A DNA stretch of 64,000 nucleotides from an uncultured Pseudomonadota bacterium (GTDB taxonomy: Bacteria > Pseudomonadota > Alphaproteobacteria > Rs-D84): positions 12,197 through 76,196 of the forward strand of contig CACXVH010000001.1 of assembly GCA_902771095.1 (NCBI GenBank), given 5' to 3'. Position 1 is the first letter of the stretch. Each line of letters starts with the position of its first letter. The notes beneath the pieces were generated by a model. That model did no database searches. It was not told the origin of the DNA and saw only the letters and a program-made list of their open reading frames with translations. The translations under genes and the position numbers were made by a program. Below are positions 29,378-30,412 of this stretch, piece by piece.

Positions 29378-30412
29378 ATGTTTAATATATTGACAAAAGT
29401 TGACAAATCAGCTGAAACCCGCAGAAACCTACACACACACACACACACACACACATGTAATCTATTGCTAAGCCCAAAACAAATCGGGACGATTTGTTTT
29501 ACAATTTCCCTTTTAATTTCCGCACCATTATTCGCAACCGATATACCATCCAGTGCATCCACAGCAAATTGTAAATATTCACCATTACAAGTATATTCTG
29601 GCACATCAAATCTGGAAGCAGGTTGGCAGGCGAACACAATACAACTTCATTGGTATAACGGTGACACGGAAATACAAAATGTGCCAAGTGTATCACAAAG
29701 TTGCGTATATGACGGAACATTGACCCCACCGGCAACAATACCAACAAAAACTGGGTATACATTCAAGGGCTGGCGTGTCCGCAGCAATGGTAATCAACAA
29801 CAAAGTCCTATACCATCTTCGGTGTTTAGCACAAATGGCGATGTTTTTGATTATCATGCTATAGATGAAAGCGATTGGAATCAGAATATAGATTATTGGA
29901 ATGCGGGGGAGTGGGCAGTAGAATGGTACGGGACATTAGCCGTATATGGGGAATCAAAATGTAGTTTAACCGATGGAACCCAATATAGTACCGGAACACC
30001 AGATGATTTGGATTGGGACCCTGATGGTGATGTTGTTGCGGACCAATATGGAACGCCGGTATATTGTTGGTGTCGTGCAACCAAATATACCCCGGTAAGT
30101 GGGAATAATCAGTGTACGGTAGCTCCATATCCAGATTATCATTCAGTACCATCATGTGATTTATCATCTATTAATTGCACAGTATCTTCATATTCGCCAA
30201 ACGGAATACCGCAATGTAATTTATCGTCTACTAATTGGGTGCTTTTAAGAGAAGGGGAAGGCTCGTGTTGGGAAAATGTGGAAGGAGAAAATGGAACTTA
30301 TTCGTGTGACCCAACTAATTATCAAGAATGTCAACAGAATTGTGCGCGCAGTTGTGCCATGGCTGCCAGTAGTAATTCTGCCTTTAAAGCTGTGTTATTC
30401 GCAGGACAATAA
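29378..30412 (+). CDS. Secreted cysteine-rich protein with Listeria-Bacteroides-type repeat (GYTFKGW) and an in-frame (AC)12 leader microsatellite
   Basis: 344 aa. Strong RBS AAGGAGG 7 nt upstream of the ATG. Codons 19-26 are His-Thr x4, encoded by (AC)12. A signal-peptide-like h-region (ICFTISLLISAPLFA|TD) follows. The PTKTGYTFKGWRV motif is typical of the List_Bact repeat. There are 20+ Cys. Confidence 0.5.
   Translation: MFNILTKVDKSAETRRNLHTHTHTHTCNLLLSPKQIGTICFTISLLISAPLFATDIPSSASTANCKYSPLQVYSGTSNLEAGWQANTIQLHWYNGDTEIQNVPSVSQSCVYDGTLTPPATIPTKTGYTFKGWRVRSNGNQQQSPIPSSVFSTNGDVFDYHAIDESDWNQNIDYWNAGEWAVEWYGTLAVYGESKCSLTDGTQYSTGTPDDLDWDPDGDVVADQYGTPVYCWCRATKYTPVSGNNQCTVAPYPDYHSVPSCDLSSINCTVSSYSPNGIPQCNLSSTNWVLLREGEGSCWENVEGENGTYSCDPTNYQECQQNCARSCAMAASSNSAFKAVLFAGQ
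29431..29455. repeat. Perfect dinucleotide microsatellite (AC)12
   Basis: ACACACACACACACACACACACACA read directly, inside the 5' coding region of the 29378..30412 gene. Confidence 0.95.

Follow-up and report, generated by a model that had tools for sequence, protein, structure and literature searches.

Can a perfect (AC)n microsatellite, lying between the start codon and the signal-peptide core of a gene for an exported protein, serve as a switch that turns the gene on and off? The question is raised by the gene at 29378–30412 (forward strand) of a 64,000-nucleotide stretch of contig CACXVH010000001.1 (assembly GCA_902771095.1) from an uncultured alphaproteobacterium. We call this whole stretch the window, and all coordinates refer to it. 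We conclude, with a probability of roughly 0.8 on the sequence evidence, that the tract is probably the mutable element of a translational phase-variation (contingency) switch. Four observations carry this conclusion: the anatomy of the 5′ end of the gene, a difference in tract length as the only indel at the same locus, mixed reading frames in front of intact genes, and the conservation of the 5′ cassette among related loci.

A dinucleotide tract between start codon and signal-peptide core

The gene and its leader are laid out as follows, all features being on the forward strand (+).

29313–29341, +: promoter-like site, TTTTCA, a 17-nt spacer and a TG-extended −10 (TGGTATAAT; TGgTATAAT), predicted, scoring 10/12 with TG
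29365–29371, +: Shine–Dalgarno sequence AAGGAGG, 6 nt 5′ of the start codon (sequence)
29378–29410, +: start codon and variable Lys-rich part of the leader, MFNILTKVDKS (sequence, translation)
29411–29430, +: near-invariant 20-nt block GCTGAAACCCGCAGAAACCT, directly 5′ of the tract, encoding AETRRNL (comparison of loci)
29431–29455, +: perfect (AC)12.5 microsatellite, (HT)4 in the ON frame (sequence, Tandem Repeats Finder)
29458–29460, +: TAA closing one OFF frame (ATG-TAA); it ends the L002, L005 and L013 translations
29465–29467, +: in-frame TTG without a Shine–Dalgarno sequence, the gene callers' start in OFF alleles (P0121 begins MLSPKQ) and a possible weak or re-initiation start
29469–29471, +: TAA closing the second OFF frame; it ends the L001 and L007 translations
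29476–29500, +: perfect palindrome AAAACAAATCG-GGA-CGATTTGTTTT in the signal-peptide coding region (KQIGTICF) (sequence)
29483–29536, +: hydrophobic core of the signal peptide with the probable cleavage region, IGTICFTISLLISAPLFA/TD (translation; cleavage, marked by the slash, by the −3/−1 rule)
29537–30412, +: mature protein, with a conserved N-terminal InlB B-repeat module and a variable Cys-rich C-terminal half (translation, Pfam, homologue alignment)
30410–30412, +: stop codon of the gene (sequence)
30429–30458, +: intrinsic-terminator-like hairpin ending the monocistronic unit, with a 13-pair stem, 7 GC pairs and a T-rich tail (terminator scan)

The open reading frame (ORF) at 29378–30412 encodes 344 amino acids and begins MFNILTKVDKSAETRRNL(HT)4CNLLLSPKQIGTICFTISLLISAPLFA/TDIPSS.... 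Read by eye, the signal peptide carries K7, K10, R15, R16 and K34 ahead of IGTICFTISLLISAPLFA/TD, and its n-region of 35 residues is unusually long.

An earlier reading of this DNA (hereafter the original prediction), made without database searches, had described an (AC)12 run encoding HTHTHTHT in the N-terminal leader. Tandem Repeats Finder reported a perfect AC × 12.5 array at these positions (100% matches, 0 indels), encoding (HT)4. This was the only dinucleotide array that it reported across the 64-kb window, and the longest other simple sequence repeats (SSRs) in a separate scan were T9, C9, (AT)6 and (GTTT)4; the tract is the sole long microsatellite of the window. A 24-nt AC run is far above chance at the window's GC content of 37.6%, because the expectation is only about 1e-10 in the window by our own estimate, (0.31 × 0.19)^12 × 64,000. 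The tract begins 53 nt past the ATG at 29378, 5′ of the hydrophobic core. As its unit is a dinucleotide, the gain or loss of one unit shifts the frame, and the TAA codons at 29458 and 29469 close both wrong frames.

The AAGGAGG-led start at 29378, also part of the original prediction, was recovered at the spacing listed above, and a start upstream of the tract is supported by the conservation of the cassette described below. The further claim that no in-frame ATG follows the repeat holds, the ATG at 29455–29457 being out of frame and followed by TAA, but the in-frame TTG at 29465 had been overlooked.

Tract length differs at the same locus in other samples

We retrieved syntenic loci from other samples by exact-protein look-up (P0001, P0121); the same look-up found neither the window protein nor P0122 on record. 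The syntenic gene order is S41 peptidase, PAP2, DUF559, tract gene, DksA, thioredoxin, SufS, SufT-like and SufE. One such locus (L003) has 12 units, as the window does, and differs from it by 1 substitution, with no gap, in 7,035 bp. In another (L001, from ERZ28613771), with 10 units, 6,952 bp contain 1 substitution and one 4-nt gap relative to the window. This gap, the sole indel between the two, sits in the microsatellite, in DNA that is otherwise 99.9% identical over about 7 kb. The repeat count in other samples thus differs, as the original prediction expected of a switch. With 10 units the ATG at 29378 is out of frame, and its translation reads MFNILTKVDKSAETRRNLHTHTHTHVIYC and then stops. 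The protein called from this out-of-frame allele (P0121) is 100% identical to the window protein over the 315 amino acids past the tract.

A third locus (L002), on a 1.7-kb contig, has 11 units in a gene 100% identical to that of the window. Upstream of position 29405 it carries another promoter and leader (MTKKEIKMVKI) behind an endonuclease III (nth) gene, and this foreign part (1–640 of the contig) meets the window-type gene at the conserved block and tract. It may be a real promoter and leader swap between paralogues or a chimeric assembly. We did not use it as firm evidence of recombination, because a 1.7-kb contig joined at a repeat shared by paralogues could be an assembly chimera.

Related loci share the 5′ cassette in mixed reading frames

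We scored 18 related loci for which DNA was available, all from Candidatus Enterousia-type gut Alphaproteobacteria. L009, which starts inside the tract, was left unscored, and L012, a metagenome match to a 24-mer from the signal-peptide region, had no tract and another context and was treated as unrelated. Frame states were taken from DNA, as protein N-termini alone proved unreliable: gene callers take a spurious leader TTG (MTNRxKPAE...), and the true ATG of some leaders lies in another frame.

Most of the 18 loci share a promoter element, an AAGGAG-type ribosome-binding site, a start codon, a Lys-rich leader, the 20-nt block and (AC)n, and past the tract they have a short stretch with stops in both wrong frames. 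The promoter element AAATATG(G/A)TA(T/C)AAT is kept in most of them. An AAGGAG-like site lies 6–9 nt 5′ of the start in most loci, with weaker versions (GAGAAA, AAGGAA, AAGGGG) in a few. The block is near-invariant, with the consensus GCTGAAACCCGCAGAA(A/C)(C/T)CT. The leaders of paralogues vary (MNTKMVKN, MNKKIAQS, MDKRITQS, MTKKEIKMVKI and others). The tract has 10–19 perfect units in 17 loci and is interrupted in L010, as listed here.

10 AC units: L001, L019
11 AC units: L002, L013
12 AC units: window, L003, L018
13 AC units: L016 = L017 (two samples)
14 AC units: L005
15 AC units: L004, L006, L014
16 AC units: L015, L020
17 AC units: L011
18 AC units: L008
19 AC units: L007
Interrupted, decayed tract: L010

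Eight of the 18 loci are in frame with the start led by the ribosome-binding site (12, 12, 12, 15, 15, 15 and 18 units, and 17 units behind a 43-nt leader), the other 10 being out of frame (10, 10, 11, 11, 13, 14, 16, 16 and 19 units, and one decayed tract). The downstream ORF is full-length in the out-of-frame copies examined. The ON frame, whose maintenance in relatives the original prediction had put forward as a check, is therefore not universally kept. Both states occur within one Enterousia metagenome-assembled genome (MAG): JAZROY01 holds at least 4 copies of the cassette on different contigs, with 15 units (ON), 14 units (OFF), 15 units (ON) and one copy cut by the locus boundary.

In another Enterousia species, a locus syntenic with 26441–32400 of the window (L018) carries in the same slot a family member that is 33% identical. 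The slot there reads S41 peptidase, PAP2, family gene, DksA, thioredoxin and SufS, and the family gene has a signal peptide of another class, yet (AC)12 in frame.

The 5′ cassette is common to about 90 of the 123 family members examined. The comparison indicates that the tract is an ancestral part of the 5′ cassette of a multigene family and not a recent insertion, contrary to the suggestion in the original prediction that the repeat had been inserted into a leader. Among the 123 proteins, 45 were called from a start 3′ of the tract (MLSPKQIG.., MLRIKQIG..), 11 from the spurious leader TTG in another frame (MTNRxKPAE.Y(TH)n) and 20 in the AETRR frame. The calls from downstream starts and from the leader TTG would follow naturally if many of the assembled alleles had lost the frame.

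The 20-nt block is kept in 17 loci, including loci fetched by protein identity alone, with proteins down to about 33% identical. Leaders of the L010 and L011 type read it as LKPAELY and most others as AETRRNL; since different leaders read it in two frames, its conservation is at the nucleotide level. Judged from these alignments, protein-level selection cannot explain that conservation, which may reflect concerted evolution, a recombination joint (compare L002) or a function of the DNA or RNA. A second, partial copy of the block lies in L018, about 190 nt 5′ of the start.

Translation is likely to run through the tract

We asked whether the ribosome reads the tract. However much the leader variants differ in sequence, none has lost the ribosome-binding site or the start codon. 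The distance from start to tract is 53, 44 or 32 nt depending on leader type, in all cases 2 mod 3, which indicates that leader indels preserved the frame. By direct reading, differences between leaders of the same type are mostly synonymous in the ATG frame (TCA/TCG, AAT/AAC, GCT/GCG, ACC/ACT). We found no ribosome-binding site in ACACATGTAATCTA, the sequence 5′ of the TTG at 29465. An SD-like 4-mer precedes 30 of 50 long ORFs of the window by a crude first-ATG heuristic, which indicates that the organism uses such sites.

Further evidence comes from two cassette classes in which the tract adjoins the hydrophobic core, ...(HT)n-GNLLIAFLSTIFIVSG and ...(HT)n-CSLLLSFLSIILISAP (L014, L015, L018, L019); past the tract these classes read (HT)n-GNLLIAFLSTIFIVSGAFA and (HT)n-CSLLLSFLSIILISAPAFS. 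Neither class has a basic residue between tract and core, and the first start codon lies inside the core. The out-of-frame L015 gene is accordingly called from a TTG as MSTIIIVFGAFA, a stump without an n-region, and the L019 call begins past the entire signal peptide. As these classes offer no basic residue or start codon before the core, a functional signal peptide would need translation through the tract. In every class the wrong frames stop within a few codons (TAA/TAA, TAA/TAA-TAG, TAG/TGA), and at the window locus the out-of-frame readings end at most 15 nt past the tract. Taken together, these sequence features support the view that translation starts at the upstream ATG and runs through the tract.

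The switch would then operate as follows. Transcription would proceed from the promoter with the TG-extended −10, and translation from the ATG at 29378 behind AAGGAGG. The ribosome would read the basic leader, the AETRRNL block and then the tract as (His-Thr)n. With 12, 15 or 18 units behind a 53- or 44-nt leader, the reading would be in frame and enter the core IGTICFTISLLISAPLFA, giving an exported, Cys-rich InlB-B-repeat protein. Slipped-strand mispairing in replication would add or remove AC units, 2 nt each. In a wrong frame, the ribosome would meet a TAA (29458 or 29469) at most 15 nt past the tract and release a peptide of about 27–30 amino acids, with little or none of the protein made. 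Family copies with the same 5′ cassette would switch independently, which would give combinatorial variation of exported proteins. That slippage is the cause, that the change is reversible, that it acts on protein level and that the protein is exported are what we infer.

Several points weigh against this mechanism. The 8:10 ratio of in-frame to out-of-frame loci is not statistically different from the 1:2 expected with an untranslated tract, for which an in-frame fraction of one third to one half would also be expected. The TTG at 29465 lies in frame past the tract with both OFF stops within 5 nt, so that termination and re-initiation could give tract-independent expression, and the OFF state may be leaky through this codon. 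An n-region of 35 residues that includes (HT)n is unusual for a Sec signal peptide. In addition, metagenome assemblers can miscount or collapse repeats, and L002 may be a chimera. The proposal of the original prediction, a phase-variation switch that abolishes export of the protein, is thus supported by the length polymorphism, the mixed frames and the early stops, but a complete loss is put in question by possible leakage from the TTG.

Alternative explanations for the tract

We considered whether the block and (AC)n might also act as a joint for recombination or gene conversion that shuffles promoters and leaders, with the OFF stops, the TTG and the palindrome giving graded ON, low and off expression. 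The suggestion comes from the reading of the block in two frames and from L002, which joins a foreign promoter and leader at block and tract; we regard this extended scheme as doubtful.

A leader-ORF (uORF) switch seems unlikely to us. The tract would then belong to a separate leader peptide and the protein would start at the TTG at 29465, in an attenuation-like arrangement as in Streptococcus gallolyticus pil1. Tract length would set where the leader stops (29458, 29469 or read-through) and thereby act on coupling or re-initiation at the TTG, or on melting or sparing of the hairpin at 29476–29500. In its favour, the TTG is an in-frame codon from which translation would give a canonical short signal peptide (MLSPKQIGTICF...), and the two OFF stops flank the codon within 5 nt. 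A perfect hairpin with an 11-bp stem and a T-rich stretch follows 5–16 nt past these stops. For pil1, a leader peptide that contains an SSR and works together with a terminator has been described (PMC3894217). Set against this are the lack of a ribosome-binding site 5′ of the TTG and the fact that in-frame alleles form one continuous ORF. The hairpin is also weak (−9.6 kcal/mol, z = −3.5, with 3 GC pairs in the stem), and was not called by the terminator scan, and cassette classes 2 and 3 lack it while keeping the block, the tract and the OFF stops. In these two classes the fusion must be the product, as they have no start codon or basic residue between tract and core.

The palindrome itself might serve in attenuation, protein binding or recombination, and as a hairpin it may modulate the leakiness of the OFF state in the cassette class of the window. 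In L016, L017 and L020 it differs in the loop base alone. The RNA fold of 29400–29540 was no better than shuffles (z = −1.1), and an Rfam scan of 29150–29650 gave merely sub-threshold matches to eukaryotic snoRNAs.

It is very unlikely that a dispensable family simply tolerates the tract as a neutral, hypervariable microsatellite, its out-of-frame copies decaying into pseudogenes and no adaptive switching taking place. The in-frame fraction is near random, the L010 tract is interrupted and carries a stop, and the protein has no Pfam match beyond Flg_new, a poor structural model and no fold match, all of which would favour it. However, out-of-frame ORFs are full-length, that of L001 being 100% identical to the in-frame allele over 315 amino acids. 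Tracts are perfect, with 10–19 units, across paralogues and species whose proteins are 33–55% identical, which would not be expected without selection for mutability. Enterousia genomes, moreover, have been described as free of pseudogene accumulation (PMC12306168).

Least probable, to the point that we give it hardly any weight, is that the length differences are sequencing or assembly artefacts and that the real tract has a constant length that always keeps the frame. PCR stutter is common in dinucleotide repeats, short-read assemblers choose one length, and L002 is a possible chimera of an nth gene and foreign leader with the window's gene, joined at block and tract. Yet the 18 loci, from independent studies and assemblers, span 10–19 units, counts were reproduced in independent samples (window = L003 = 12; L016 = L017 = 13), and tracts of 20–38 nt are well inside the read length. 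A promoter-spacer switch, built from two perfect TTGACA hexamers of the leader (29389 and 29400) and a TGTAAT past the tract, was rejected, as the spacing is at least 50 nt, neither hexamer has a −10 at 17 nt and the hexamers are absent from other leader types.

The tract gene belongs to a variable family of putatively exported proteins

The original prediction had named the GYTFKGW region a Listeria–Bacteroides repeat, and Pfam concurs: PF09479 (Flg_new / Listeria-Bacteroides / InlB B-repeat) matches amino acids 104–145 (29687–29812), marginally, at 28.1 bits against a cut-off of 27. Relatives score 17.9–30.4 bits and carry the NCBI name 'InlB B-repeat-containing protein'. A Pfam scan of the window protein at E ≤ 1 found Flg_new and a sub-threshold MenC_N, and nothing else. 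Invariant Cys, Trp and Gly columns run through 88 homologues. The AlphaFold2 model built from these homologues was poor (mean pLDDT 58.6), and Foldseek gave no match in the PDB with E below 2.

A protein search found 194 relatives, nearly all from gut metagenomes, the few named ones being 'Alphaproteobacteria bacterium' MAGs. Scanning species-representative genomes with the 24-mer matched 2 MAGs, on 4 contigs of a 'Candidatus Enterousia sp.' MAG and 2 contigs of an alphaproteobacterial MAG from horse faeces. No further family copy turned up in the window, whether by tblastn with the conserved N-terminal module or by searching the DNA for the 24-mer and a 15-mer of the block.

Family members share a conserved N-terminal module of about 85 amino acids (Cys, Trp, GYTFKGW). 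The C-terminal half is highly variable and falls into two classes, one Cys-rich with a ...FRRAVFGVSQ-like end and the other ending ...NVVGMWDTVSKTFFTNAGTGSF; Pfam gave no match in either. N-termini are also of two types, a plain signal peptide (MKKFFVALFMLL...) or a long leader with a His-Thr tract. The Cys-poor C-terminal class (GYTRLQYIESTGTQYIDTG ... IPAKRNSDNVVGMWDTVSKTFFTNAGTGSF) is found on the same N-terminal module in P0037, P0044, P0054, P0071, P0082 and P0088–P0120, mostly with the plain signal peptide (MKKFFVALFMLL) and sometimes with a tract-bearing leader. The presence of both leader types on this class suggests that domains have been shuffled among family members.

Enterousia, of the order Rs-D84, is an uncultured lineage of animal and human guts with genomes that are mostly below 1 Mb (PMC12306168). 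It lacks the TCA cycle and a respiratory chain, its genomes are described as reduced without pseudogene accumulation, and a role of its hypothetical membrane proteins in interactions has merely been speculated upon (PMC12306168).

Comparison with known contingency loci

The proposed mechanism is of a known kind; the organism and gene family are new for it. Going by its sequence, the locus would work like the Opa and Hop families without being a member of either, the Pfam scan of the window protein having shown no homology to Opa or Hop β-barrel outer membrane proteins. The original prediction had named opa as the analogue. This is apt in that both are multigene families with leader repeats, but the functionally closest system is the CT-dinucleotide switch of Helicobacter pylori. 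CT repeats of this kind are found in hopZ, sabA, sabB and babB. In oipA (hopH), a CT repeat occupies the signal-peptide-coding 5′ end, with On and Off alleles and many repeat patterns among strains (PMC10564699). As in oipA, the dinucleotide repeat here comes after the start codon and before the signal peptide ends, a unit change shifts the frame, and, as in H. pylori, several paralogous exported proteins would be switched independently. The differences are that Hop proteins are β-barrel outer membrane proteins whereas this is a Cys-rich InlB-B-repeat protein, that the repeat is AC rather than CT, that it sits in a long extension of the n-region before the core within a cassette with an invariant 20-nt block, and that the host is an uncultured alphaproteobacterium.

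Neisseria opa genes, which encode 8-stranded β-barrels, carry CTCTT pentamers in the leader-peptide coding region that encode part of the hydrophobic core. PMC11868660 lists SSR phase variation for Neisseria. The two systems have in common a multigene family, a repeat in the signal-peptide coding sequence, independent frameshifts, and a conserved 5′ end with variable mature parts. Unlike opa, the repeat here is a dinucleotide and not a pentamer and lies before the core, not in it, and there is no homology (Pfam: Flg_new only).

S. gallolyticus pil1 combines GCAGA repeats in a leader peptide with transcription attenuation (PMC3894217). Here too, the repeat lies in a short ORF led by a ribosome-binding site, repeat number would set where the ribosome stops, and a hairpin follows just 3′. 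The pil1 leader is never fused and a true terminator is the effector, whereas here an in-frame tract joins leader and protein in one reading frame, and the weak hairpin lies within coding sequence and is not found in every cassette class.

The Vlp lipoproteins of Mycoplasma switch through a poly-A tract in the promoter, and other mycoplasma lipoprotein families through site-specific inversion. Such variable lipoproteins, for example Vlp of M. hyorhinis, are named in PMC11868660. The resemblance lies in a genome-reduced, host-associated bacterium with an exported family of conserved 5′ ends and leaders, variable mature regions and combinatorial on/off states; unlike Vlp, the change here would be a translational frameshift, and the protein has no lipobox. 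In the literature on Enterousia and on SSR phase variation in Alphaproteobacteria we found no such contingency locus, within incomplete coverage.

Significance and neighbouring elements

A multigene exported family in which each member has a hypermutable switch is a hallmark of strong, fluctuating selection on the surface, which host immunity, phages or partner cells can impose; Neisseria, Helicobacter and Mycoplasma are examples. The finding therefore offers a concrete, testable hint that Enterousia lives closely associated with a host or with another cell, and it nominates the variable Cys-rich proteins as interaction molecules. What makes the locus of interest is the organism, the size of the family and this clue to lifestyle. 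As gene callers mis-start about half of the family (at a TTG or GTG past the tract, or in the wrong frame), it is systematically mis-annotated in MAG catalogues.

Two GC-rich palindromic repeat elements, at 28640–28807 and 29189–29308, have about 65–70% GC against 37.6% for the genome and contain 97-nt direct copies (28711–28807 and 29212–29308). They look like miniature mobile or REP-like elements. They bracket a DUF559-like ORF (28589–29194) and end exactly where the family promoter (GGGGGGTAAAAAAACACTTTTCAT) begins. Similar elements lie 5′ of the family genes in L014 and L015, and small GC hairpins occur in the 5′ untranslated region of L006 and L013; in L018 both the elements and the DUF559 gene are absent. 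As listed, the DUF559-like ORF shares about 50 nt with the end of the PAP2 gene (27954–28637); the real start of this ORF is probably further downstream, because its first 60 or so codons run through the GC-rich repeat element.

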